From: a virus
IMG/VR virus record: IMGVR_UViG_3300033148_006706
Coordinates: 75,905 to 139,904 of that record
Direction: 5' to 3' (one strand)
DNA: 64,000 bases
Shown: positions 7,261 to 59,119 of the stretch, in pieces
Numbering within the stretch: position 1 is the stretch's first letter
Layout: each line of letters starts with the position of its first letter
Notes under the pieces: model-generated
What the model was told of the DNA's origin: nothing
The model's input: the letters and a program-made list of their open reading frames with translations, nothing else
Databases searched by the model: none
Position numbers and translations under genes: made by a program

Positions 7261-7436
7261 CGTTGCTTTAATCTCCTTATTTTTCTATTTAAAATATCAC
7301 AATATTGTAAAGCTCGAATACTAAGTACATTAATTTGCAATCTCTCACTAATTCTATCTTTATCGTTTCCTTGATTATTAGATGAAAGATATTCAATGTT
7401 GTTTAATATTTCTATAATTTGTTTCAATTCATTCAT
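7257..7436 (-). CDS. Small hypothetical protein, 59 aa (MNELKQIIEIL...), not in the ORF track
   Basis: GGAGG RBS; ATGA overlap with the dnaX start. Confidence 0.55.
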   Translation of the reverse strand: MNELKQIIEILNNIEYLSSNNQGNDKDRISERLQINVLSIRALQYCDILNRKIRRLKQR

Positions 7437-7451
7437 TATACCGCCTCCATT

Positions 7452-7491
7452 TAAAAAATGGAGCCGAGCGATATATTTACCACTCAGCTCC
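7452..7491 (-). terminator. Putative intrinsic terminator after rIIB
   Basis: GGAGCTGAGTG...CGCTCGGCTCC stem followed by ATTTTTT on the minus strand. Confidence 0.6.
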
Positions 7492-7500
7492 TGACGATGA

Positions 7501-8715
7501 TTAGGAGGATTTATCTACTCTCTCAACCGAAGGGGCTAAGAGTTCTGGAACTGACAATTTTTTTCCATTCTTTTCGATACAAGCCACTAAATATCTTTTA
7601 TATGATGTGGCCTGTTTATGACGTACACCATTCCTTATACGATAATTTTCCATAAATTCCATATTCTCAATTCTGTTAATTGCGTCATCTACTGTCTCAT
7701 TGGCCTCGATAGTTGTTAGAATATATCCTTTATAATCATTATTAATATGTTGCCAATTTGCTTTTCGATATAATACTGAAAAATTTTCTAAATATTTTAC
7801 TCCATCGTTTTCAGTAAGCCCATATTCATTTTCTAACCAATAATTGTAATAATCTTCTTTTTCTTCATATTCCTCCTCTCTATCTGCATCATCATCATAT
7901 ATAAGATAATCACCATCAGATACAAAATAATCTTTAATTTTAGTATTTTTCCAATCTTCGATAATCTTCACTACTTCATACTTACATACTCTCATTTTAG
8001 CATTATTATAGTCTGCTGGTACAGTTACTACATCCTTTGGATTAACTTTTACTAATACAGTTACATCCCTTTCCGATTCTAATGTACCGTAGTAAAGCAA
8101 ATAATTATAACTACATACATGAAAGCCATAAGAACATGTCATATATCTATCAGGATCAACTTTGTCCCTATCCATTTCAATTATTTCACCTGGAGAATTA
8201 TTTATACTCCTGGTATAAATGTCAACCAATATGCCCTCTTCATTCCTTATTACTTTCTTATAAGCTAAGAAACATCCATCCTCAGTAATTGGTAAATTGT
8301 TGTGTTCTAAAAACAAATACAATTCGTTTACACTTTGTGGAGAGGGATTTTCCATCATGTTTTCAATAAACTTTACAATACTCTTCCAATCTCCTTGTTG
8401 ATCAATAACTTCTTCAAGTCTGTCAACAATAGCGGATCTTATCACTGTATCTTTATACTTGATAAGCCCATTTTCAATGGTGATTGGACTATCTTTCAGA
8501 TAATTTTCAAATTTTACTTTTCTGTCCAGTAGTTTCTTAAGACTTTGAACTAAACGACTAACGGAATCCTCATCCTCCCATTGATCAAAAGCAAGTAGCA
8601 TGTGACTTACTGGCTTGTAGTTATCTTCGGTAGAATGAACAGCATAAGATACACCGTCCATATACAACTGAATTTCATCCTTTGTCATAAAAAACTGCAA
8701 TCTGTTCTTATTCAT
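7501..8715 (-). CDS. rIIB: rIIB-like protein
   Basis: LYLFLEHNNLPITEDGCFLAYKKV, CSYGFHVC, KVNPKDVVTVPADYNNAKMRVCKYEV; adjacent to rIIA. Confidence 0.85.
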   Translation of the reverse strand: MNKNRLQFFMTKDEIQLYMDGVSYAVHSTEDNYKPVSHMLLAFDQWEDEDSVSRLVQSLKKLLDRKVKFENYLKDSPITIENGLIKYKDTVIRSAIVDRLEEVIDQQGDWKSIVKFIENMMENPSPQSVNELYLFLEHNNLPITEDGCFLAYKKVIRNEEGILVDIYTRSINNSPGEIIEMDRDKVDPDRYMTCSYGFHVCSYNYLLYYGTLESERDVTVLVKVNPKDVVTVPADYNNAKMRVCKYEVVKIIEDWKNTKIKDYFVSDGDYLIYDDDADREEEYEEKEDYYNYWLENEYGLTENDGVKYLENFSVLYRKANWQHINNDYKGYILTTIEANETVDDAINRIENMEFMENYRIRNGVRHKQATSYKRYLVACIEKNGKKLSVPELLAPSVERVDKSS

Positions 8716-8749
8716 TTTATTTATCCTCCTAATATATAATATATATTTT

Positions 8750-10987
8750 TTATTGATAGTTTTTAAGTAAATCTATCAATATCTTCACATTTTCTTCTTT
8801 TATTCCTACTCCATAATAGTCCTCTATTGAATCCTTGTCCACTATTTTTAATATCGGGTATTTATCTTCTACCTTTTTAAGCAAATCGCTTGTTTTTATA
8901 AACATTTCCGATAATTTTTTATTATTTAATACATCAAATTCATCTACAGAATATTCAAAATCGTATATTATTTTTTTCAAATTCTTTAAATCCCTCTCAA
9001 TTTCCGGTATACTACCTTTTCCTTTTTTTCTATTAATTAACTCTTTCACATCTTTGTCACTCTCAAATACTTTTTTATCACAATCGTCAACTATCTCTAG
9101 TATAGTTACAAGTTTTCTTTCAATATATGATAAGGATTTATCATGATGCATTAAAAAACTTGTATATCCATATTGTTTTATAGCTTTAGAGCTATTAAAT
9201 TTTTCTTTCAATAATACTTCTATTGATTTAAAGAATGGTTTGAATTTTGTTAATTTTTTAAATCTTTTCGTGTTAATTTCGTATCCATTAATTACAAATA
9301 TTGGAATACTGTCATTAAGCACTTCAAGACTTTTCAAAATATCTAATTTTAAATTAGGAACTCTTCTATTTTCATCTCTAACATCTTTATACGAATTTCT
9401 ATATCTTATTACATAGTATAACTGTGAATTATTCTTGTATATATCACTTTCTAGCAATTCTTTATATGTAAAACTTTTATTTATGCCATCGCAGTTATGT
9501 AAAATAGTATAAAATCTATTACTATCTTTATTTTCTGTAGCAGAAGAGTCTGTTTTACTTCTCTCTCTACCTGGTTTTCTTATATATTTAAGTTCACTTA
9601 TCTTATTTAGCTCTCCATCAACTCCCAATTTTTGAATATAATCTTCTGGAATGACTAATGCATGAAAGTTATATTGTCTCATGTTTTGTTTTAATTTGTA
9701 TATTCCGCTATTTGGATTATTTTCATCATTTATAAAAATTTTTGTCTTAGGAGACCCGATTTCACTATAAGAAATAAATGAATTTAAAACAGATGATTTT
9801 AAAACTACTCTATCTTCATAAGTATCATAAAAAGAACCTTTTTTTTGAACTTTAAAAAATTTTATTTTCTTTCTATCATCACTATTATCTATTTCCAATG
9901 CCTTTTGTAAAGGTTTTCCTTTATACCAAACGTTTCTATTAATAAAATCACGAAAAAAATCAACTTTAGAAACGATAGTATAGTAACTTCTAATCACTTC
10001 TAACAATGTCTTATTATCACTGAAATATTCTTCTTGAATTTCATCTTGAACTTTCTTTACAATTTCTTTTAATTTTAATATAAGATTATTTACAGTTCGT
10101 GTATCTAATGAAAGCGCCTCCCTACTTGGGGCAATATCAAGCTTACCAATTGGAAATTCTATCACTATAAGTAAACTACGAAGAAAATGCGTAATGATAG
10201 TCTTAAGCTCATTGTTTAAAAGATTGCTATCAGATATCAACCCCGATTTTGATAACGAATCAACTCTATATTCAACGTTCCCTTGCACAGCAATAAGACC
10301 GTTGTTATATCGTCCTTTATATATTCTCCAATCACTTCCTTTAAATATAGCATCTTTAGGGTATTCAAGTGGAGCAAAATCACCTTCTCCACCTATAACT
10401 CTTGGCTTAATCCGAAAGGGGCGAAATACTTCTTTAGCGTTTGCCTCCCACATGTAAAAGTCTCCCTTATCTACTTCAACTTGTACTTTAACTCCATTAT
10501 GCTCAGAAGTACTCATCTCTGTTACTTTTGAAATACAAGGAATGTTTTCCTCATTAAGATAACAGGCATAGATTTTCTTTTCCCCATTATATACCGACTC
10601 AACAGTAAAGGATTCCTTATACGCAAAAGGAGATTTACTCCCCAAACCCAAGACACCCACAAAGTCATTGCTTTCAGTTTTATCGCTTCCAAAATAGCTA
10701 CTGTATAACGATAAAACTTTTTCCTCACTCATTCCTGTACCATAGTCTTTAACATAGAAGTATGGTTCAAGGGAATTAGGAAGATGCACTTCAAATGGTT
10801 CTCTTTCTTTACCTGCCTCTACATGTGAATCGTATGCATTGGTAGAGAGCTCACGAATAACAGCCTTTATTTTATTTGTATATAATTTATCTGAGAGAAT
10901 TTGAAAAGCTTTTGGACTGGCAGTGATAGAAAAATTCTGCCCTTGGAGATTAGTTTTTACATTCTTTTTCTTAATCACTAATTGCAT
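8750..10987 (-). CDS. rIIA: rIIA-like protein (N-terminal GHKL ATPase)
   Basis: AFQILSDKLY, IRELSTNAYDSH, DYGTGMS, GLGSKSPFAY, APSREALS. Confidence 0.9.
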   Translation of the reverse strand: MQLVIKKKNVKTNLQGQNFSITASPKAFQILSDKLYTNKIKAVIRELSTNAYDSHVEAGKEREPFEVHLPNSLEPYFYVKDYGTGMSEEKVLSLYSSYFGSDKTESNDFVGVLGLGSKSPFAYKESFTVESVYNGEKKIYACYLNEENIPCISKVTEMSTSEHNGVKVQVEVDKGDFYMWEANAKEVFRPFRIKPRVIGGEGDFAPLEYPKDAIFKGSDWRIYKGRYNNGLIAVQGNVEYRVDSLSKSGLISDSNLLNNELKTIITHFLRSLLIVIEFPIGKLDIAPSREALSLDTRTVNNLILKLKEIVKKVQDEIQEEYFSDNKTLLEVIRSYYTIVSKVDFFRDFINRNVWYKGKPLQKALEIDNSDDRKKIKFFKVQKKGSFYDTYEDRVVLKSSVLNSFISYSEIGSPKTKIFINDENNPNSGIYKLKQNMRQYNFHALVIPEDYIQKLGVDGELNKISELKYIRKPGRERSKTDSSATENKDSNRFYTILHNCDGINKSFTYKELLESDIYKNNSQLYYVIRYRNSYKDVRDENRRVPNLKLDILKSLEVLNDSIPIFVINGYEINTKRFKKLTKFKPFFKSIEVLLKEKFNSSKAIKQYGYTSFLMHHDKSLSYIERKLVTILEIVDDCDKKVFESDKDVKELINRKKGKGSIPEIERDLKNLKKIIYDFEYSVDEFDVLNNKKLSEMFIKTSDLLKKVEDKYPILKIVDKDSIEDYYGVGIKEENVKILIDLLKNYQ

Positions 10988-30696: not shown

Positions 30697-30760
30697 GCTT
30701 ACAATGTAAATATATAACTGCACCTGGAAATTAAACTGGGGCTAGCCACCAGGATAGCTA
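30697..30760 (-). repeat. tRNA-like intergenic element, copy A (degenerate)
   Basis: AGCTAT-CCTGGTGGCTAG-degenerate T arm-...TTAC ATT GTAAGC. Confidence 0.7.
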
Positions 30761-30762
30761 TT

Positions 30763-31041
30763 CTATAAAATAACTACATCAGCATCGACGGGCTCATATA
30801 AAACCACATGCCCGCTGGCTTCTTCAATACTCTTGACAGAAGCTCCCGCCCAGCCAAACGGGCCTCCGACTCCGAAAGGGTCAATTTTAATAGCATTGAA
30901 AAAATCAACGCTATCCATGCCTTCCCAAACCTTGTTGTCATCAACAAAGAAAACTGCGTAAACATCTTCGCCCTTGTCGACGACTTGATCTTTTATTACT
31001 GTGTCATACTGCACAGTAAATTTCACTGCTACCTTTTTCAT
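30763..31041 (-). CDS. Hypothetical early protein (start revised to MKKVAV)
   Basis: AAGGAG RBS immediately after repeat copy B. Confidence 0.65.
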   Translation of the reverse strand: MKKVAVKFTVQYDTVIKDQVVDKGEDVYAVFFVDDNKVWEGMDSVDFFNAIKIDPFGVGGPFGWAGASVKSIEEASGHVVLYEPVDADVVIL

Positions 31042-31067
31042 TTTTTCTCTCCTTATCATAATATTCT

Positions 31068-31133
31068 GCTTACAACATAAGCATATAACCATGCCCAGGA
31101 ATTGAACCCGAGCCTTATACCACTAGAATGAAT
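31068..31133 (-). repeat. tRNA-like intergenic element, copy B
   Basis: TCTAGTGGTATAAG D-loop-like segment, GCTCGGG-TTCAATT-CCTGGGC T arm, GCTTAT-GTT-GTAAGC hairpin. Confidence 0.8.
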
Positions 31134-31147
31134 AATTGGAATTATAA

Positions 31148-31453
31148 TTATTTATGATAAAATCTTGCTTTTATTCTCCCACTCTTAGTTGTGTACAATT
31201 CAATAGCATTCTCCCACTCTACACTTGAAGGGGGGTCACCATAGATAACAACCTCTCTTCTTTCACTGTCATCTACCCACTTATAAAAAGTTTCCTCCTC
31301 TATCCAAGAGTGATCCGAAAATATTACTTTTGCGTAATCCCTAAATACTTGATAATCTATCTCTCCATCCGTATAGAAGCACATCGCTACATCTATACCC
31401 TGCTCATAAATAAGGTAATCGGGAAGGTCGCTTATCCTAATAATATCTCCCAT
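31148..31453 (-). CDS. Hypothetical acidic early protein
   Basis: AAGGAG RBS. Confidence 0.6.
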   Translation of the reverse strand: MGDIIRISDLPDYLIYEQGIDVAMCFYTDGEIDYQVFRDYAKVIFSDHSWIEEETFYKWVDDSERREVVIYGDPPSSVEWENAIELYTTKSGRIKARFYHK

Positions 31454-31501
31454 CCTTATCTCCTTTACGTTTTAGACCCGCCGGTCATAATATTATATTT
31501 C

Positions 31502-31546
31502 GCTTACAACGTAAGCTTACAATTGTACCCAGGAATTGAACCAGGG
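31502..31546 (-). repeat. tRNA-like intergenic element, copy C (5' truncated)
   Basis: CCCTGG-TTCAATT-CCTGGG then GCTTAC-GTT-GTAAGC. Confidence 0.75.
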
Positions 31547-31548
31547 AA

Positions 31549-32118
31549 TTATTCATAATAATTAAAAAGAACAGGCATTATAAAAGCCATATACCGGAAT
31601 TTATTATACTGCTGCGATGATACAAGAATCAAAGGATTAAAAGGTTCCGCAGGTATTTGTACTTCCAGAAAATAACCGGAAGGAATATTCTTTAAATAGT
31701 CACGTAAATGATCGTATTCGATAGTCCAAGTTTCTTTTGTGTTCCAGTTTTTGGACATTTTAATGATTATGTCCGTGTATATGAGCGGTATCGAGCTAAC
31801 AGGATATTGAACTAAATATTGAGTTTGTAATTTATATTTCTGCATCACCCGCTTGTGATCTGGGAAATTAATATTATCAGATTGAATCAGATATTTATTT
31901 TTTAGATCAATATAATAAATTCCTTCGGGCAAAATTATATCCTCGTCTGTAGTTTCAACAATATACATTCTCTTAGTATCGGTACTTACAAGAGAATAAC
32001 CTGTTGAGAGGATATGACCGAAAAACGGCAACCGAGTGCCTTTCCCGGCAGCTACCTTCAAGTATTTTATCAGCGGTTTTAAATCTTGATGAATAAAAAT
32101 CTGATCTTTTTCTTTCAT
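31549..32118 (-). CDS. Half-size beta-sliding-clamp-like protein
   Basis: LVSTDTKRM, NFPDHKRVM and C-terminal FIMPV resemble DnaN domain II-III motifs. Confidence 0.55.
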   Translation of the reverse strand: MKEKDQIFIHQDLKPLIKYLKVAAGKGTRLPFFGHILSTGYSLVSTDTKRMYIVETTDEDIILPEGIYYIDLKNKYLIQSDNINFPDHKRVMQKYKLQTQYLVQYPVSSIPLIYTDIIIKMSKNWNTKETWTIEYDHLRDYLKNIPSGYFLEVQIPAEPFNPLILVSSQQYNKFRYMAFIMPVLFNYYE

Positions 32119-32139: not shown

Positions 32140-32598
32140 CTATCTATCAAATTTAAAATAAACTCTCGGTTCAATCTCCCCAGGACGTCCAACGTCAAAC
32201 CCGATGGGCATGATCGGTTCTAATTCATAAGCTCCTAGAAAGCCCTCGAGAAGATTCTCTTGATCGATTTGATCAAGAGTAAGAAAGATTGCCTCTTCAG
32301 CTGGAGATAGGGAAGCGCCAACATTACCTAAGAACCAGAGTTGACCGAAATTGAGATTTTTAACCTCAACTTCAACTCTGTACCATGGGTCATCAGCAAG
32401 AATGATCCATTTTGGAAAACTCTGCCCCCGCAAGGCTTTCCTAAGATCATTTACAGATGGGAATTTATACTTCCCGTTTGTATTGATCGTTAGAGATAGA
32501 GAGCGAGGGGCTGGAGCTCCTTCTTTCTTTACTCCATCCCAAGAGAATCCAGGGCGGATTGAAAAAGAATATTTCATTTCTCTCATTTCTCCTTTCAT
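32140..32598 (-). CDS. Hypothetical early protein, paralog of 33212-33676 (true start probably 32577)
   Basis: IRPGFSWDG...QLWFLGNVGASL...DVGRPG shared with the paralog. Confidence 0.7.
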   Translation of the reverse strand: MKGEMREMKYSFSIRPGFSWDGVKKEGAPAPRSLSLTINTNGKYKFPSVNDLRKALRGQSFPKWIILADDPWYRVEVEVKNLNFGQLWFLGNVGASLSPAEEAIFLTLDQIDQENLLEGFLGAYELEPIMPIGFDVGRPGEIEPRVYFKFDR

Positions 32599-32611
32599 TA
32601 TAATATATTCT

Positions 32612-32674
32612 GCTTACAACGTAAGCTTACAGCCGTGCCCAGGAATCGAACCTGGGCTAACCACCAGGACGGCT
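32612..32674 (-). ncRNA. tRNA-like intergenic element, copy D (most perfect)
   Basis: AGCCGT/ACGGCT closing stem, CCTGGTGGTTA loop, GCCCAGG-TTCGATT-CCTGGGC T arm, then GCTTAC-GTT-GTAAGC. Confidence 0.7.
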
Positions 32675-32686
32675 AATTCCAATTTG

Positions 32687-32917
32687 TTAGTACTGCAATT
32701 TTTCCAAAAGCCACACATACCCATCCCATTCATAGCGAATAGGATGAACGATAAACCCGTCTTCTCTCGTATGGTTGCGAAGATATCTTTCTACAGCTCC
32801 AGGGCTTCTCTTTATAATTCTGTATGGATGATCTTCCTGCTGCTGCAGAAACCACATGAGATCAATGATCTCATCCTTCTTTCCGTTCTCCCAAATTTTT
32901 ACCACGTCATTTCTCAT
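32687..32917 (-). CDS. Small hypothetical protein
   Basis: GAGGTG RBS. Confidence 0.6.
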   Translation of the reverse strand: MRNDVVKIWENGKKDEIIDLMWFLQQQEDHPYRIIKRSPGAVERYLRNHTREDGFIVHPIRYEWDGYVWLLEKLQY

Positions 32918-32934
32918 TTCTTCACCTCTCCATT

Positions 32935-33111
32935 TTAATAATCTTCTCCAGGTTCTCTTCTTAGAACCTTTTGAAGTCTAATTTTATATGCTCGAGGACT
33001 TAGAACTTCTAAGTCCTCATAATTTTTGACGAAATCAAAGCACTTTTCCATATTCCCCTCAAAGAGGACATCTGCCCTTTTGAAGGAAACCACAACCCAC
33101 TTTTTCTCCAT
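32935..33111 (-). CDS. Small hypothetical protein, 58 aa (MEKKWVVVSF...), not in the ORF track
   Basis: AAGGAG RBS; follows hairpin copy E. Confidence 0.55.
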   Translation of the reverse strand: MEKKWVVVSFKRADVLFEGNMEKCFDFVKNYEDLEVLSPRAYKIRLQKVLRREPGEDY

Positions 33112-33141
33112 CTTTCTCTCCTTTCTTTTTCATAATCTTCT

Positions 33142-33159
33142 ACTTGCCATACGGCGAGC
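33142..33159 (-). repeat. Repeat copy E (downstream hairpin only)
   Basis: GCTCGCC-GTAT-GGCAAGT-AGAA, matching the hairpin of copy F. Confidence 0.65.
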
Positions 33160-33211
33160 TATATTCCTATAAATATATCACTTAGCGAACTTTTGGCCCC
33201 AGCTTCCCCCT

Positions 33212-33676
33212 CTAAAATTTTAGAAAAAGTGCAGGCTCGGGCCCACCGGGACGCCCCAAATCCAAGCTTACAGGTCGGATATGTATCCCACCGTGAATGT
33301 CCAAGAACTTGTCGAGAAGATTCATTCGGCTCCCATCATCGGATGTGACATATTCTTGGTTAGCCTGATTCATAACTGAGAGAATTTCTCTCTCGGCTAA
33401 ATTGAGAGTTGCTCCAACTTGGCCAAGAAAGAACAATTGATCAAATGTCATATCCCTGATATCACATTTGACTTCGATTCTCACATCTGGGCCATCATTA
33501 ACAATAGTCCAGATAAAGCCATGCCCGTCCAGGGCTTCCCTCATATCTCTTACTGACGAGAAACTCCGCTCTCCGTCAGTGAGAATTATTAAAGTCATTG
33601 AGTGCGGGTCTGGCACTCCATGCTTTTTTGCCCCATCCCAGAAGAATCTAGGGCGAATTCTAAAAGACCGCTTCAT
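33212..33676 (-). CDS. Hypothetical early protein, paralog of 32140-32598
   Basis: IRPRFFWDG...QLFFLGQVGATL...DLGRPG. Confidence 0.7.
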   Translation of the reverse strand: MKRSFRIRPRFFWDGAKKHGVPDPHSMTLIILTDGERSFSSVRDMREALDGHGFIWTIVNDGPDVRIEVKCDIRDMTFDQLFFLGQVGATLNLAEREILSVMNQANQEYVTSDDGSRMNLLDKFLDIHGGIHIRPVSLDLGRPGGPEPALFLKF

Positions 33677-33894
33677 TTTCTTCCTCCTTTAATAATATTA
33701 TTAGTCTCCTTTAACAGAGACTCTTCACTATAATGCCCCCCGCAATATAGACAATATAAGTAATCTCCATACCCATATATCTTTATATCAGATAAAGATA
33801 TGGGATCGCCAACATTAAGCGCTTCAATTGCACATTTAACATGATAGCGCAAAGGATTCGCTATCACTTCATTATACATAGTACTATTTTTCAT
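33673..33894 (-). CDS. Small zinc-finger-like protein, paralog of 34376-34600
   Basis: MYNE...PLRYHVKC...LYCLYCGG.YSEESL. Confidence 0.65.
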   Translation of the reverse strand: MKNSTMYNEVIANPLRYHVKCAIEALNVGDPISLSDIKIYGYGDYLYCLYCGGHYSEESLLKETNNIIKGGRK

Positions 33895-33920
33895 TTTCTT
33901 TCTCCATTTAATGATTTTCT

Positions 33921-33986
33921 ACTTGCCATACGGCAAGTTACAGCCGTGTCCGGGAATCGAACCCGGGCCTAACCACCAGGACGGCA
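33921..33986 (-). ncRNA. tRNA-like intergenic element, copy F
   Basis: GCCGT/ACGGC stem, CCTGGTGGTTAG, CCGGG-TTCGATT-CCCGG, then ACTTGCC-GTAT-GGCAAGT. Confidence 0.7.
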
Positions 33987-33992
33987 ATCCCT

Positions 33993-34220
33993 CTATTCCT
34001 CAAATTGCTCCCATCGGGAGCTATAAATATATGCTCCCGCGCAAGCGAGCATCTGCACGTGTTTATCACAAAACTCGCCGCCATCACCTTGACCCCACCA
34101 CACATGCCAGACGCCTTCAGCGTCTTCCGGATACTCGAGAATCCCTGCAGGGTTCTCTAGCCCGCAATACGGACAAGATTCAGCATCTCTTAAAATTTCG
34201 TCAATTGTCTTCTTCTTCAT
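33993..34220 (-). CDS. Small Cys-rich protein
   Basis: CPYC and CDKH; coupled to neighbours. Confidence 0.55.
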   Translation of the reverse strand: MKKKTIDEILRDAESCPYCGLENPAGILEYPEDAEGVWHVWWGQGDGGEFCDKHVQMLACAGAYIYSSRWEQFEE

Positions 34221-34383
34221 TTTCTTCTTCCTTTAGTCTGTCACAATAGACATTACCATTTTCATCTACTCCCGAGTTACATCCGCCACCAAATGGCGAA
34301 CATGACAACCCGGACGACTTCCAAGTGTAATCATAATACGGGCAATCATCACCCGACATAATTTGAGACGGTTCTTTATTCAT
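34201..34383 (-). CDS. Small Cys-rich acidic protein
   Basis: AGGAG RBS; overlaps neighbours. Confidence 0.5.
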   Translation of the reverse strand: MNKEPSQIMSGDDCPYYDYTWKSSGLSCSPFGGGCNSGVDENGNVYCDRLKEEENEEEDN

Positions 34384-34600
34384 TTTTCTCTCCTCTTATA
34401 ATTTCATTGCTTTCCTTCATTAATGACTCTTCACTATATTGTCCTCCACAATACGGACAATATAATGAACCACCATACTTATATATCTTTATATTAGATA
34501 AAGATATATAATCATCAATGTCAAATGCTTCGATTAAACATTTGACGTGATAGCGCAAAGGATGCGCTACCGCTTCATTGTACATAGCATTGTTTCTCAT
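34376..34600 (-). CDS. Small zinc-finger-like protein, paralog of 33673-33894
   Basis: PLRYHVKC...LYCPYCGG. Confidence 0.65.
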   Translation of the reverse strand: MRNNAMYNEAVAHPLRYHVKCLIEAFDIDDYISLSNIKIYKYGGSLYCPYCGGQYSEESLMKESNEIIRGEKNE

Positions 34601-34624
34601 TTTCTCTCTCCATATAAAATTTTA

Positions 34625-34822: not shown

Positions 34823-35924
34823 TCTCTCCCTCCTCTAGCTTTTTTATAATTACTTCCATACTATCAGTCTGGAAGTAATTACTAAGACGGCTTAACATCA
34901 TGTCAACTGTGCCGTCTTCTTTATCTGGAAAAAGCTCAATGCTTTTTTCCAGTTTCCTTTGTTCTTTGAATAGGCTATTAACCCGTTCTCTTAGTTGCTC
35001 AATTTTAGCGCTGTATTTTTTTACTTTCCTTTCAGCGCTCTTTTGAGCAATTATTTTTTCATTGAGTATCCCCCTATATTTCTCAGTCACATCTTTTTCT
35101 CTTTCATAAGACGTAACTTCCTTTTCCCCCCAACAGCCGCCCCTCATACCATCGGGGGATTCCTCAATATAATGACTTTCAACTCTCTGAACAGGGTACA
35201 CCGTATATACCCGCTGTTCATCAAGGTCAATCTCAATAAGTTTAGAACTAAGAATTCCTTTTATTCCCTCTCCTTCGGATATTTTTCCACGTATCCGAGT
35301 TTCGAGCTCAATTCTCTCAGCTTGGCGCTTAGCTTCGCCGAGAGAAGATAGAGCCCCTTTCATTCTAGTAATCTTTTTTTGAATTTTTTTAATTTTGGGG
35401 AGTATCTCTTTTTTCAGGTGGGTGACTTTTTTAAATCGGGGCAGTAAAACTTTACGCCCCCAAGCCAGGGCTTCTTGGTGCCGTTTTCTTAAATCGGCTT
35501 CCCTGGCTTCTTTTTCAGCTATTTTATACAAGCGATAGGCTTCTCCCATCGCTTGCCATTCTTCTTTTTTTAAATATTTCTCAATTCCTGACTCCCAACT
35601 GCCATCTTCGTTCGGGTAGAAGACAGCAATCCTCTCCTCTCTATCGTCAGGGAAAACCTTAACGACAGAGACTCTGGGAGTCCATGTCCTCAGGCTGACT
35701 TTAGTGGGAACTTGCCAATCCCACTTTCTAATTTCAACCCGAGGCTCTGCTTTTCGGAGCGGTGTGGCGATAAAAAACCGCTCCTTTTCAACCAATCTAC
35801 ATTCCCACCACTCGCCAATGGTGGGCTGAAAACAAGAACGGCGATCTATCAAAATCACCTTCCCGTTTTCGTTTTTTCCAAAGAACGGCCCTTTCGAGCC
35901 GTTCTTTACTTGGAGGAGTTTCAT
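34797..35924 (-). CDS. Hypothetical coiled-coil protein with N-terminal OB/TRAM-like beta domain
   Basis: 375-aa ORF with heptad-rich segments; domain call is tentative. Confidence 0.6.
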   Translation of the reverse strand: MKLLQVKNGSKGPFFGKNENGKVILIDRRSCFQPTIGEWWECRLVEKERFFIATPLRKAEPRVEIRKWDWQVPTKVSLRTWTPRVSVVKVFPDDREERIAVFYPNEDGSWESGIEKYLKKEEWQAMGEAYRLYKIAEKEAREADLRKRHQEALAWGRKVLLPRFKKVTHLKKEILPKIKKIQKKITRMKGALSSLGEAKRQAERIELETRIRGKISEGEGIKGILSSKLIEIDLDEQRVYTVYPVQRVESHYIEESPDGMRGGCWGEKEVTSYEREKDVTEKYRGILNEKIIAQKSAERKVKKYSAKIEQLRERVNSLFKEQRKLEKSIELFPDKEDGTVDMMLSRLSNYFQTDSMEVIIKKLEEGENGENRKNH

Positions 35925-35932
35925 TTAAATAT

Positions 35933-36307
35933 TTAAATACAAAACTGATCTACGCAAACCAGCATTGATACTCGATCAGCTAGTTTGCATACCCTAGCCT
36001 TTCCCAACGGCCGACCGCTTGCCTTTATTGCGGTTAGCGTCGGGAAAGACACCAAAACGATATCGACGCTGCTGTCAGCCTCAAGCTCATCAAGAGCTTG
36101 AATGATAGCTGGAGGCAGCTCAAAAGCCATCTCCACATCGACCCAACCTCTAGAATTCTCGATCTTTTTCTCGATTTGCTTGACCGAGAATCTTCTTACA
36201 GTTTCACAGTCGACACGTGACAGCACCGTGCCATCTGTGAACTTGAAATCGTGCGGACTGGAGAAATTTACAACTCGCAGTCCATTCTTCAATTTTACTT
36301 TTGTCAT
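35933..36307 (-). CDS. First gene of the early cluster, hypothetical (start revised to MTKVK)
   Basis: AGGAGG RBS downstream of the structured leader. Confidence 0.65.
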   Translation of the reverse strand: MTKVKLKNGLRVVNFSSPHDFKFTDGTVLSRVDCETVRRFSVKQIEKKIENSRGWVDVEMAFELPPAIIQALDELEADSSVDIVLVSFPTLTAIKASGRPLGKARVCKLADRVSMLVCVDQFCI

Positions 36308-36340
36308 TTTTCCTCCTAATCTAATCATTTTTTCGTTTCC

Positions 36341-36480
36341 AGCCGCGTGGGATTCGAACCCACCCCGGCTAATGCCGGTTCCCGCATCGGAATTTCACCT
36401 TGCGGCCGATGCCCCTGTCTGCAGCCAGGCGTCCGGGACTTTTTTACGGTGGGACACTCACCGAAATTTCATTTTTAATT
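36341..36480 (-). ncRNA. GC-rich structured 5' leader ending in a canonical tRNA T arm (copy G)
   Basis: Hairpins CGGTG/CACCG, CCTG/CAGG, GCATCGG/CCGATGC and CCGGC/GCCGG, then GTGGG-TTCGAAT-CCCAC-GCGGCT. Confidence 0.6.
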
Positions 36481-36486
36481 AACTGC

Positions 36487-36515
36487 ATTATACCCCCCTT
36501 TGCAAAAAAAGTCAA
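36487..36515 (-). promoter_or_regulatory. Consensus sigma70 promoter for the early cluster
   Basis: TTGACT (36515-36510), 17-nt spacer, TATAAT (36492-36487), with an A/T-tract UP-like region upstream. Confidence 0.85.
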
Positions 36516-36630
36516 TAGTTTTTTCTAAAAAAATAAAAAAATTTTAATTTTTTTCTGGAAAAATAGTAAACACATGTTTACTACTCCTATATCTCTAAAA
36601 TCTCTAATTCTCCTGTCAAATTTAAGATTG

Positions 36631-39318
36631 CTATATCAGCTCATCCCCAAATCCCCATACCTGATTTTTATCATAATAATCAGCTATATTTATTTCAAGT
36701 TCAAGTGGAATTCCTTTATTCTCCGGTCTATCTTTCTCAAATTCTTCTTTTGCTACTTTAAACAACTCATTTACCTCTTCTCTATGTGTATATCCTACAA
36801 TAGCGTCATGTACATTTCCACATAATCTGCTTTTCAAATTATTTTCTTTAATATATTTGTTTAATTTAATAGCCATTAATATCATAATTGCGTTTTCATA
36901 ACTTTGTACTGGAGAATTTAACGCTATATTTTTAAGATTTTTAATCACTCCTTTTCTATCATCCTTTCCTTGATATTTTAATTGTGGCAGTCTCCTGATT
37001 GCCCCAAACGGGCTTCTTACGTACCCATCAATTTCAGCCTGCCCTTTTATCTCATTTGTACCCACAATTTTATCTATCCAACTCTTCAATCCACTATATT
37101 TTTCAAAATATTTACCTCTTATATCACTAGCTACTGCCCAACATTTAGCAAAATAAGATTTATTAGAAATAGATTTAAACATATCAGATTTATCATCATT
37201 TAATAATGAAAGCATTTTATCAACCTTGTTTTGCAAATTAAAATCATTTATATATTTAATTACGTCCCTCTCACCCCATTCTTTCTCAATAACAGTTTTA
37301 GCAAAATTAAAAGCTGTTGCACCGAATTCTAATTGAAAATTGATTCCCTTGGCTTTAAATCTTATCTCTTTTATATTATCATCCCCAGCTTTTTTTAATT
37401 TAATAAACTCTTCAAGAGATAAATCCCTTCTTAGTACAAATTGAGCAGTCATACTATGCATATCGCCACCCAATTCTGTAAAAACCTTCTTCATTTCTTT
37501 ATCTTGACTATAAATAGCTCCAATACGTAACTGAAATCCCGATGCGTCTTTTTCATCTATAACATAATCCTCGCTCGGGGGAATAAATATCCTGCGATAC
37601 CATTTAGCTCTTTCTCCGTGTTTCGGAATATTTTGTCCATTCGGGTTTTGACTCCAATTCCTGTGAGAACTTGTAAGAAAGGGGCCAAATGTGGGGTGTA
37701 TTCTATCATCACGCTTCCTATATTGAAAGAATCCTGAATTATCTTCTCTTTTGCCCACAAAGGTATTCATAAGAGTCTTCAGGGCCCTGTACTCTTGAAT
37801 AAGCTTAGCCTCTTTATGTCCATCGTTAATCCATTGAATTAACTGATCATCTCCAGTTAAATATATATTATTTATTTTTAAATCTGCATTTAATTTTTTA
37901 ATTAAACCGGGCTTAGGCTTTTCTTTACTTCTGCCATAATCTTTCCATCCTAACATTTCCAATACAGCCCCCAATTCATTACCGCTATCCAGGTCAAAGT
38001 CAACTTTTAAAGATTTTATTATTTCATCTTTTTTTTCACTTATTAATTTCTCCAATTCTAATGAATATTTTTCAAGTAAATTCCAATCAACACACATCCC
38101 CTCTAATTCTATATCTAGAAAAACATTCACAGCTGGCATAACAATATCATAAAAATATTTTTTTAAACTCCATTGGCTCTCAGGAAATTTTTCTTGTACA
38201 GGAAAGGCTCTATCAATTCTTTCTATTTCCTTTACTTGTTGTTCATATATCTGATATGTAACAATAGCATCCATAATAGCATAGGGATATCTAACTTCTT
38301 CTGGAATCCTGCTATAATCATTTTTACATTCAGGATATTTCTTTTTATACAAGTCTAATTCTCTATCATATCCCCCGTGTATTGTATAGAGCCATGCATC
38401 ACTTTTAAGTGATGAGCGTTGCATTTCGTTTATAACATGACTGGCATTCCATGTATCATGATATATGTTGATATTTTCTCTAGGAACCCCTTTTAGAATG
38501 AAAAATTTTGTATCATATTTTCCATTTTGCATGATAAGCATTTTATTCTTAATAAATTCTGAAAAAAGATATATATCAACTTTCTTCCAATCTAATAAGT
38601 AACCGGTTATACCATCAAAGGAGATAGTTACTTCGAGTATTTCGCTATCAGGATGCCAGGGATCTAGTAATTTAGTTTCAATATCACAGGCCATCTTACA
38701 AGCTTTATCTTTATTAGCCTGCAGCCACACGTTAGGGTCCTCAATTACTTCTTTCTTTATTCTTTGTTTTTCTATTTTCGGAAATTCTATCATAAAAGCG
38801 TTTCTAATTTGATGTTTAGCAAAAATGTAAGACCAATTATCAAGGATTTTATTTTTTCTAGGGTTGATAAAATTATATAAATTGTCAATCGGGAAAATTA
38901 TAGAATCTAAATCAGGAGCATAAAAATAAGTTTTGTTAAATATAATATCATAAAAACCTTTGATATCTAAATCGTCGCTTTTAATAATAGAATATAACGC
39001 CCTGCCTACTGTAATAATTTTACTTTTTGGTTTTATATACTGCTTCAAGTCTATACATCTGTCGGCATAAAAATCAATTATTTTATTTGGTTCTTTATCT
39101 AAATTGAAATTGAAACAGTTCAAGACAAGTATATCTGCATCAACTATACTAGAAATAAATCTTAAGAAAATTTCTCTAGTTTTATAATTATAATTTTTAT
39201 CTAAAACAACTACAAAATCATAAGATTGATCTTTATTAGATTTAAATACTACTGAATCGATCATATTATAATATTTTTTAATATCGAGGTTTCTATTTAG
39301 AGGCTTACTAAAAATCAA
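36631..39318 (-). CDS. polA: Family A DNA polymerase with 3'-5' exonuclease and a UDG-like N-terminal domain
   Basis: Exo DIET, NGKYD, YAIMDA; PNGQNIP; motif A DASGFQLR, motif B RFKAKGINFQLEFG, motif C VHD. Confidence 0.9.
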   Translation of the reverse strand: MIFSKPLNRNLDIKKYYNMIDSVVFKSNKDQSYDFVVVLDKNYNYKTREIFLRFISSIVDADILVLNCFNFNLDKEPNKIIDFYADRCIDLKQYIKPKSKIITVGRALYSIIKSDDLDIKGFYDIIFNKTYFYAPDLDSIIFPIDNLYNFINPRKNKILDNWSYIFAKHQIRNAFMIEFPKIEKQRIKKEVIEDPNVWLQANKDKACKMACDIETKLLDPWHPDSEILEVTISFDGITGYLLDWKKVDIYLFSEFIKNKMLIMQNGKYDTKFFILKGVPRENINIYHDTWNASHVINEMQRSSLKSDAWLYTIHGGYDRELDLYKKKYPECKNDYSRIPEEVRYPYAIMDAIVTYQIYEQQVKEIERIDRAFPVQEKFPESQWSLKKYFYDIVMPAVNVFLDIELEGMCVDWNLLEKYSLELEKLISEKKDEIIKSLKVDFDLDSGNELGAVLEMLGWKDYGRSKEKPKPGLIKKLNADLKINNIYLTGDDQLIQWINDGHKEAKLIQEYRALKTLMNTFVGKREDNSGFFQYRKRDDRIHPTFGPFLTSSHRNWSQNPNGQNIPKHGERAKWYRRIFIPPSEDYVIDEKDASGFQLRIGAIYSQDKEMKKVFTELGGDMHSMTAQFVLRRDLSLEEFIKLKKAGDDNIKEIRFKAKGINFQLEFGATAFNFAKTVIEKEWGERDVIKYINDFNLQNKVDKMLSLLNDDKSDMFKSISNKSYFAKCWAVASDIRGKYFEKYSGLKSWIDKIVGTNEIKGQAEIDGYVRSPFGAIRRLPQLKYQGKDDRKGVIKNLKNIALNSPVQSYENAIMILMAIKLNKYIKENNLKSRLCGNVHDAIVGYTHREEVNELFKVAKEEFEKDRPENKGIPLELEINIADYYDKNQVWGFGDELI

Positions 39319-58216: not shown

Positions 58217-59119
58217 ATGAAAGACAAAATTATTAAAAGAATTATCAGGAAAAAGATAATAGATTGGGTAAAAAGTATAGAGGATGAAAAGTTAAGAGAA
58301 GATATATACCAGGATTGCATTGTTACTGGAGGGGCTATAGTCTCTTTGATGTTGAATGAAAAACCGAAAGATTATGATGTTTATTTTAAAACTAGAGAAA
58401 CAGTTAAAAAAGTAGCGAAGTATTATATAAAGAAATTCAATGAAAAAAAGAAGGGTAGTTTAGCGTTTCTCGAAGAAAGAGGGGATGATAAGAGATTATC
58501 TATACTAGTAGAGGATGAAGTCGTAGAAAATATTGTAGAAAGATCTGATGACATTCCCGAGGAAATTGTAGAAGATATTGTAGAGAGAGCTGATGACATT
58601 CCAGAAGAAGAGCTAGAGGGGGATGTAAAAGAAGAAAATGAAAAATATGTGCCTGTTTTTCTTTCGCCCAATGCTATTACATTATCTAATGGAATACAAG
58701 TAGTGATACGTTTTTATGGTACTCCGAGAGAAATACATAAAACTTTCGATTTCGTACACTGTACAGCTTGGTATCGTTATAGAGATAATAAACTCGATTA
58801 CACTAAGAAATGTATTCGTTCTATTTTAAACAAGGAACTTATTTATATAGGAAGTCAATATCCTATTTGTTCTGTTATGAGAACGAGAAAATTTATAAAA
58901 AGAGGGTGGAAAATTAATGCCGGGCAGTATTTGAAGATGTTATTCCAAGTAAGTGAACTAAATCTTAAAGATATAAATGTTCTTAAAGAACAGCTAATTG
59001 GTGTAGATACTACTTATTTCATGATGCTAATAAATGCATTAGAAAAGAAGATAGAAGATGATAATGCTTTTGAAGTTGACACTGAGTATATTTGTAGTAT
59101 TATAGACAAGATTTTTTAG
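58217..59119 (+). CDS. Phage nucleotidyltransferase-fold protein
   Basis: IVTGGAI...KDYDVYF (GG/DxD), FDFVHC. Confidence 0.7.
   Translation: MKDKIIKRIIRKKIIDWVKSIEDEKLREDIYQDCIVTGGAIVSLMLNEKPKDYDVYFKTRETVKKVAKYYIKKFNEKKKGSLAFLEERGDDKRLSILVEDEVVENIVERSDDIPEEIVEDIVERADDIPEEELEGDVKEENEKYVPVFLSPNAITLSNGIQVVIRFYGTPREIHKTFDFVHCTAWYRYRDNKLDYTKKCIRSILNKELIYIGSQYPICSVMRTRKFIKRGWKINAGQYLKMLFQVSELNLKDINVLKEQLIGVDTTYFMMLINALEKKIEDDNAFEVDTEYICSIIDKIF

Follow-up and report, generated by a model that had tools for sequence, protein, structure and literature searches.

A possible t-element-like processing signal: an anticodon-less tRNA-shaped leader and its smaller copies in a gene block of an uncultured bacteriophage

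Transfer RNA genes can stand at the head of operons that otherwise encode proteins, as they do in the metY-nusA-infB operon of E. coli and before tufB in the same organism, where the tRNA-processing enzymes separate the parts of the transcript. Phages also encode tRNA-like stable RNAs of their own, among them species 1 and 2 of T4 and RNA1/RNA2 of T5, which have no known function and lie within clusters of tRNA genes. The genomes of T4-type phages are in addition said to carry “PeSL” cassettes, reportedly described by Arbiol, Comeau and Krisch in 2010, in which a terminator hairpin is joined to a promoter and which act as crossover points between small early genes.

The use of tRNA-like structures as processing signals at the ends of mRNAs is known from plant mitochondria, where “t-elements”, which carry a T-loop motif, direct the cuts of RNase P and RNase Z (Forner et al. 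2007, PMC1920247). These elements are non-canonical tRNA-like folds closed by an acceptor-like stem, and the element that is released can persist as a stable small RNA (PMC1920247). A further departure from the canonical cloverleaf is found in the irregular tRNAs or allo-tRNAs, which combine a long extra arm with an 8/4 or 9/3 acceptor branch (Mukai et al. 2017, PMC5389517). The t-elements, the tRNA-led operons, the stable RNAs of T4 and T5 and these irregular tRNAs are the nearest published counterparts of the phage element described in the present work; a search of one library of papers found none describing such anticodon-less elements, or t-element-like processing, in phages.

The window analyzed here is a stretch of DNA of 64,000 nucleotides which makes up the right-hand part of a virus record of 139,904 bp, complete and bounded by terminal repeats, from an uncultured phage of sediment. 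The feature lies on the minus strand, which is the coding strand for everything between ~5 and ~48 kb of the window. The gene for an 895-aa family-A DNA polymerase has its stop at 36631, and in the 300-nt gap that follows are found a promoter and a leader of ~170 nt, whose last 71 nt (36409-36339) form a tRNA-like module. A 124-aa gene comes next, with ~15 small genes after it. The features of this region, in the order in which they would be transcribed, are as follows.

36557-36584, minus strand: AT-rich hairpin with a U run, just past the polymerase stop at 36631
36487-36515, minus strand: sigma-70-type promoter, with TTGACT at 36515-36510, a 17-nt spacer and TATAAT at 36492-36487
36447-36463, minus strand: first leader hairpin, 5 bp with a 7-nt loop and then an A run, not a terminator on the minus strand
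36411-36439, minus strand: second leader hairpin, within which 8 nt (36428-36421) offer the acceptor 3' strand another partner
36384-36412, minus strand: alternative 7-bp stem enclosing a two-pair GNRA-capped mini-hairpin (36405-36398), mutually exclusive with the 7-bp acceptor closure
36339-36409, minus strand: tRNA-like core, consisting of acceptor stem, extra arm and T arm, with neither a D arm nor an anticodon loop
35933-36317, minus strand: ribosome-binding site (36317-36312) and first block gene (start 36307, 124 aa, no known family)

An earlier reading of the sequence on its own (the sequence-only reading) had described the element as lying in a very AT-rich genome. This description holds for the surroundings, but not for the element itself: the GC content is 0.25-0.33 elsewhere in the genome and rises to 0.38-0.43 across a 6.5-kb block at ~30.0-36.5 kb, and the leader therefore heads a compositionally foreign block, which was probably acquired horizontally. 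None of the proteins of the block receives a Pfam or PHROGs name; the 154-aa protein has no relative on record, and a 375-aa protein has weak N-terminal matches only. The genes of the block are probably host-takeover genes, and no integrase is present among the genes neighbouring the leader. The block also contains two paralogous pairs of small genes, one of 152/154 aa (32140-32598 and 33212-33676) and one of 73/74 aa (33673-33894 and 34376-34600), the latter within a 235-nt direct repeat with 77% identity.

The AT-rich hairpin at 36584-36557 has a folding energy of -12.2 kcal/mol (z -2.3) and is likely to be the terminator that closes the upstream unit; the terminator pattern scan missed it, as it has fewer than three G-C pairs. 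A long A/T tract (36516-36556) lies directly upstream of the -35 hexamer of the promoter, and the position of the -10 hexamer predicts a transcription start near 36480, ~7 nt downstream. The hexamers are not beyond chance if taken alone, since there are nine matches of 11/12 in the genome and ~15 in shuffled sequences, but the promoter of the leader is the only one of the nine that is both intergenic and on the coding strand. The order of promoter, tRNA-shaped RNA and protein genes is that of the metY-nusA-infB and tufB operons. The tRNAs of those operons are working tRNAs with anticodons, whereas the leader cannot decode and is called by no tRNA finder.

The core begins 72 nt past the predicted start of transcription and ends 31 nt before the start codon, a placement compatible with mRNA ends cut by RNase P and RNase Z. 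Its acceptor stem, in which 36408-36402 pairs with 36346-36340, has 7 bp including one G-U pair, or 8 bp if 36409 pairs with 36339. The place of the D arm is taken by a 9-nt linker, and that of the anticodon arm by a short stem (36392-36379) with a loop of 3-6 nt; there follow an extra (variable) arm of 5 bp with a 4-nt loop (36378-36365) and a T arm (36363-36347) whose 7-nt T loop is canonical. CCA is missing from the 3' tail, and a C or U stands at position +1 instead of the usual G. The core is thus a tRNA shape which is unable to decode. This cloverleaf-like closure is the minimum-energy fold, with a pair probability of ~0.85 in the acceptor and 0.97 in the T stem, while the pair probability of the competing stem (36412-36384) is 0.05-0.08.

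These results bear out most of the structural description given in the sequence-only reading. The promoter TTGACT-N17-TATAAT is present on the minus strand at 36515-36487, as are all of the hairpins that had been listed, including the GNRA-capped mini-hairpin, the T arm and the GCGGCU strand before the ribosome-binding site. The closure resembling tRNA-Leu/Ser that had been put forward as an alternative pairing, with 36378-36365 as a variable arm, proves to be the minimum-energy fold (~0.85); it is also the alignment chosen by the tRNA-Sec model of Rfam, and its acceptor is compensatory with respect to the two best of the smaller copies considered below. The stem that had been seen to compete with it (GCAUCGG/CCGAUGC, 7 bp) is real, and in combination with the second acceptor partner it costs only 0.9 kcal/mol more. 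Suboptimal folding, which had been proposed as a check, accordingly returns two near-equal acceptor closures that are 0.9 kcal/mol apart.

The closeness of these two folds raises the question of a conformational switch, in which either 36408-36402 or 36428-36421 would pair with the acceptor 3' strand and so gate the processing or translation of the block, one fold keeping the stem 36412-36384 and the other melting it. The second partner makes 8 bp, three of them G-U pairs, in a fold of 90 nt, and the structure that contains it together with the stem 36412-36384 is calculated to be 0.9 kcal/mol less stable when the folds are constrained (-50.0 vs -50.9 kcal/mol). Two perfect partners as observed occur in 1.7% of shuffles of the upstream leader, although a single perfect 7-nt partner for the acceptor 3' strand occurs in 20% of them, and from the order of the sequence the competing stem would be complete before the acceptor 3' strand is transcribed. 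Against this, alternative pairings are common in G+C-rich sequences, there is no comparative support, and no ligand-binding family matches. The folds of the leader leave the ribosome site free, and because neither fold reaches the ribosome site or a terminator the switch would have no obvious output. We regard a switch as very unlikely for these reasons. A side observation concerns the first leader hairpin (36447-36463), which is terminator-like when read on the plus strand, where it is followed by a T-rich run; no plus-strand gene converges there.

The assignment of the core to a described class of RNA was evaluated with tRNA finders and with Rfam. The sequence-only reading had suggested a tRNA search, and neither ARAGORN nor Rfam at its curated gathering thresholds calls a tRNA at the leader; when relaxed, ARAGORN produces forced folds there that are mutually inconsistent. 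The D arm and the 7-nt anticodon loop of a canonical tRNA (RF00005) are absent from the leader. A permissive Rfam scan over 201 nt does align the tRNA-Sec model (RF01852) end to end with 36409-36339, using the acceptor, the extra arm and the T arm and deleting the D arm together with the greater part of the anticodon arm, but at 24.7 bits against a threshold of 47 (E 0.0049 for the 201-nt search), which falls short of membership in a class marked by a 6-bp D stem, an anticodon arm, a long extra arm and an 8/5 acceptor branch. The tmRNA model (RF00023) makes a local match of 17 nt to the T arm at 14.3 bits vs 47, also short of membership, and a match to the pemK family (20.5 bits vs 34.8) is at chance level. 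No riboswitch, T-box, put-type or other curated cis-regulatory leader family matches, and no expression platform is found.

The leader resembles the allo-tRNAs in having a skeleton like that of tRNA-Sec, sub-threshold tRNA-Sec matches, a polycistronic setting and a possible role outside translation; the allo-tRNAs, however, keep their D and anticodon arms and have readable anticodons, and the leader has neither (PMC5389517). The class whose structural definition the leader does fit is that of the t-elements, as it presents a T-loop motif in a non-canonical cloverleaf closed by an acceptor-like stem. It shares with them the T-loop motif, the acceptor-like closure and a position beside mRNA ends, these ends being predicted in the case of the leader. 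The t-elements are organellar and their cuts have been demonstrated, whereas the leader belongs to a bacteriophage, its cuts are proposed from structure, and the phage elements serve in addition as repeats at which cassettes recombine.

Which of these features could have arisen by chance was assessed with shuffled sequences. A strict T arm was defined as the canonical 7-nt loop on a 5-bp stem whose closing pair is G-C. The 140-kb genome contains five of these against 0.07 expected from dinucleotide shuffles, in every case within a tRNA-like context. Four of the five lie in the 6.5-kb block, on one strand and within 5.3 kb (0.002 expected), and the fifth belongs to a tmRNA-like domain outside the block. 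The folding energy of the leader has z values of -0.5 (183 nt), -1.4 (107 nt) and -2.1 (95 nt), which is unremarkable for a G+C-rich stretch. The T arm is thus clearly far beyond chance; the same cannot be said of the hexamers of the promoter, of the folding energy or of the acceptor pairing when each is taken singly.

The same block contains smaller repeats at ~30697, 31068, 31502, 32612 and 33921; a hairpin-only copy is found at 33128 (33128-33161). Each repeat lies 5-11 nt past a stop codon and just before the next ribosome site. The copies with tRNA-like folds are the following.

33941-33987, minus strand: copy B, in which an acceptor stem, a D-loop-like bulge and a T stem of 7 bp come ahead of a 6-bp hairpin and the next ribosome site
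32630-32675, minus strand: copy A, built as B (z -2.7), with a trailing hairpin of different sequence and the same shape
~30697-30771, 31068-31136 and 31502-31559, minus strand: three further copies, partly degenerate

These smaller copies form a family. In both A and B a 7-bp acceptor is joined through an 11-12-nt D-loop-like bulge to a 7-bp T stem with a canonical loop, and a 6-bp hairpin whose shape is kept while its sequence differs between the copies follows 2-4 nt downstream. A single base separates the acceptor 3' strand of the leader from those of A and B, and compensating changes separate the 5' strands, on the strength of which we take the leader to be kin to both. The leader is the first and the largest of the anticodon-less tRNA look-alikes that precede genes in this phage. 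It is nevertheless an atypical one: its acceptor/T stack measures 12-13 bp against 14 in the others, the middle portion is 38 nt long against 11-12, and there is no trailing hairpin. That the leader is the “master copy” of the repeats, as the sequence-only reading had proposed, is not demonstrable, given that it shares only the T arm and an acceptor strand with the other copies and that a covariance model of the family, described below, matches it in the T arm only.

The smaller copies are constant crossover points for the exchange of cassettes. Recombination joints were read from the contigs of X1, a sediment DNA run and the one public sequencing run which contains the phage; no RNA run is listed for the stretch. 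One joint leads from 30736 to 31550, that is from copy to copy, and drops two genes; another leads from 32615 back to 31079, from hairpin to hairpin, and reorders the cassettes; two more (32910 to 34205 and 33911 to 34614) connect repeated ribosome-site/start regions and paralogues. A further record of the phage (L017:1-75) agrees with the window at every base as far as copy A, diverges from it inside the acceptor 3' strand, and continues with a different hairpin of the same shape. As short repeated elements between small genes that mark the points of modular shuffling, the repeats are comparable to the PeSL cassettes. A PeSL, however, is said to consist of a terminator hairpin and a promoter, and in a block repeat a tRNA-like fold is combined with a hairpin and a ribosome site.

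For the leader itself a role as a crossover point is hinted at by variation in the first gene. In a variant of the phage (L028) an allele of 44% identity takes the place of this gene, the remainder being ~99% identical, and the comparison of window 35790-36171 with L028:1-400 places a mosaic boundary near the start of the 375-aa gene; the L028 contig begins inside the first gene, so that the leader region lies outside its record. In run X1 a single low-depth contig (depth 2.3) covers the leader and the 5' half of the first gene is uncovered, a break in coverage which fits the allele swap of L028 on thin evidence. This contig lacks one base at each of two positions of the extra arm, 36368 and 36371, which may be an error at such a depth.

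The leader is identical over 350 nt in three records of the same phage (L007, L008 and L030), and with 100% identity among all copies whose sequence was retrieved the leader itself offers no covariation. No diverged copy from a related phage was found in the viral, metagenome and genome collections. None of 50,697 phage records matched the 7.9-kb block in a blastn search, and scans of viral contigs seeded with peptides of the 124-aa, 375-aa and polymerase proteins gave nothing. DNA patterns specific to the leader or the repeats, applied to the same viral, metagenome and genome collections, retrieved only the same phage (L017), chance matches (L018, L019 and L021-L027, rejected as such) and the L016 array described below. 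The sequence-only reading had treated conservation in related phages as the measure of its proposal, and by that measure the sequence collections leave the conservation of the leader unproven and not refuted.

Homologues of the first gene are found in other phages, and their surroundings can be compared. In five other phage contexts the homologues, with 36-41% identity, lie inside tight operons, and in six contexts (P0002-P0006 and P0013) there is no T arm and no model match on their contigs. In a GC-rich phage contig (L029:2060-2130, plus strand) a relative of the L028 allele, and thus a homologue of the first gene, lies behind the sequence TTGACA-N17-TATACT with its T-rich upstream tract, then a 117-aa ORF, and this operon start has no tRNA-like leader and no DNA similarity. 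The host-type promoter thus recurs before the family of the first gene, and the leader does not. This observation bears on the suggestion of the sequence-only reading that the leader is a cis-acting antitermination RNA of the put type, which would permit readthrough of terminators in a long transcript. Such an RNA would be expected where the leader lies, directly downstream of a promoter and with stem-loops in its first 100 nt. The suggestion is opposed by the L029 operon start, which has the promoter and lacks the leader, by the lack of any Rfam family match, and by the terminator-like sites downstream on the minus strand, which are few, weak, located inside ORFs and unconvincing. We know of no antiterminator RNA in which a canonical T arm, such as the leader has, plays a part, and we consider antitermination most improbable.

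The anticodon-less design also occurs in an unrelated phage, one without any relative of the polymerase described above. A pattern scan of viral contigs found, in a 67-kb contig (L016, IMGVR_UViG_3300035517_000474), an array of 13-14 anticodon-less units at 7280-9040 on the plus strand, spaced by 120-150 nt within a 2.1-kb stretch free of ORFs, for which there is no Rfam family. Each unit has in order a GNRA-capped hairpin (GUGA tetraloop), an acceptor stem, a D-like region and a T arm, without an anticodon arm, and has a conserved tail, N-C-A, with a U-rich motif behind it. Among 13 of the units 87% of cells are paired, compared to 72% in shuffles, and 10 of 12 pairs change on both sides; none of 500 shuffles reaches the observed value and no slid register comes close. 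A covariance model (R1) was built from this array alone, a full match being defined by a 7-bp acceptor, a 12-20-nt D-like region and a T arm. When R1 is applied to the whole 64-kb window it places copy B first (E 0.011) and copy A second (E 0.068), both matched end to end, with the leader third through its T arm alone (13 bits, E 1.3).

The array weighs against one account of the leader, namely that it is a decayed tRNA, a pseudogene of tRNA-Sec or of class II, or the leftover of an integration site, and has no present function. The resemblance to tRNA-Sec below threshold, the missing D arm and anticodon loop, the visible degeneration of three of the smaller copies and the lack of covariation in the leader itself would all be expected from decay. 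Yet the same anticodon-less design recurs with compensatory changes in the unrelated L016, no integrase lies nearby, and the slot after the promoter and before a ribosome site is common to the other copies. In the bacterial genomes of 185,579 species no tRNA contains the 3' half of the leader, which leaves an origin from the 3' half of a host tRNA (an att-site remnant) without support there; seven pattern matches in bacterial genomes lie inside coding sequence and were rejected as chance. Decay is in our judgement decidedly unlikely.

The array points in a different direction as well. It is free of ORFs, and its units are therefore RNA genes and not leaders, which favours the possibility that the product of the present locus is likewise the tRNA-shaped RNA itself, made early and abundantly and acting in trans. 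It might, for instance, be the decoy or sponge of a host factor by which tRNAs are recognised at their acceptor/elbow half, such as a processing enzyme, a toxin that modifies tRNA or a nuclease of a defence system; the co-transcription with genes would then be incidental, as it is for the tRNA genes at the head of bacterial operons. The element lies directly behind the strongest-looking promoter of its strand, and the phage has no canonical tRNA gene (ARAGORN) and carries elsewhere in its genome a tmRNA-like domain lacking the message part. It also appears to invest in counter-defence through a Gad2-like gene. Set against this are the failure to find SmpB or RtcB genes in the phage, the lack of a convincing candidate for a CCA-adding enzyme, and the absence from the leader of the anticodon loop, where most of the known tRNA-directed defence nucleases cut. 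A trans-acting role is a credible reading, if an unlikely one, and it overlaps with the explanation favoured below because release of the RNA would still need RNase P and RNase Z. The stable RNAs of T4 and T5 are similar to the leader in being phage-encoded, in having a tRNA-like acceptor/T-arm part and in having no decoding role. They lie in tRNA clusters, whereas tRNA genes are absent from this phage, whose elements are set between protein genes; the comparison is one of descriptions only.

Two loci mentioned above deserve a description of their own. The tmRNA-like RNA lies outside the window (genome C1:13826-13945, plus strand) and has the typical 5' and 3' ends of a tmRNA and a T arm, with only ~60 nt, in the form of one long hairpin, between the ends; it lacks a message part, is not called by ARAGORN and looks different from the leader. 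The Gad2-like gene is a 300-aa ORF of the window (58217-59119, plus strand) whose head weakly matches PolyA_pol. The idea that it encodes a CCA-adding enzyme of the phage was dropped because the ESM Atlas groups it with the Gad2 (anti-Gabija) nucleotidyltransferases (score 0.98); a single-sequence AlphaFold model has a pLDDT of 39. It is likely to be an anti-defence gene.

The part of a tRNA that is recognised by RNase P, RNase Z and the CCA-adding enzyme is the acceptor stem stacked on the T arm, together with an elbow partner like that provided by the D loop. The stack with a D-loop-like partner is the shape that is kept in all of the copies, and in view of this and of the precedent of the t-elements the processing of the transcript is therefore favoured as the function of the element. 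The explanation that we prefer, and to which we give an even chance, is that the core of the leader is a t-element-like signal cut by the RNase P and RNase Z of the host, and probably also a constant junction for the swapping of genes. According to this explanation a host-type promoter would drive the ~170-nt leader at the start of a transcription unit. RNase P would cut on the 5' side, at ~36409/36408, and RNase Z or an equivalent on the 3' side, at ~36339/36338. The triphosphate leader would thereby be removed and a small, stable RNA of tRNA shape set free, and the first mRNA would have its 5' end ~30 nt before the start codon. At the downstream copies each mRNA would be left to start with a hairpin of its own, plausibly a shield from decay that depends on the 5' end. 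We infer the start of transcription, the cleavages and any activity of the released RNA from the features of the sequence and from these precedents.

A more ambitious form of the proposal, which we offer tentatively and think on balance unlikely, would unite the leader and its siblings in a single tRNA-punctuated cassette system, in which the elements are at once RNase P/Z sites and crossover points for shuffling of an integron-like kind and the leader is the gate. The cuts would chop one early transcript into messages of single genes, each headed by a protective hairpin, and the two near-equal acceptor closures of the leader would determine how much of the block message matures.

The anticodon-less phage elements are a recurring class that is apparently undescribed, and of which the leader is a somewhat atypical example; the gain from the leader alone is modest. 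These elements are invisible to tRNA finders and to Rfam, so many of them may lie in the gaps annotated as “intergenic” in phage genomes. Provided that the cuts are real, a bacteriophage shapes its early messages with the tRNA-trimming enzymes of its host, a principle known from mitochondria. The repeats mark the gain, loss and reordering of cassettes in natural populations, and would thereby link RNA-processing signals to the rapid turnover of early genes.
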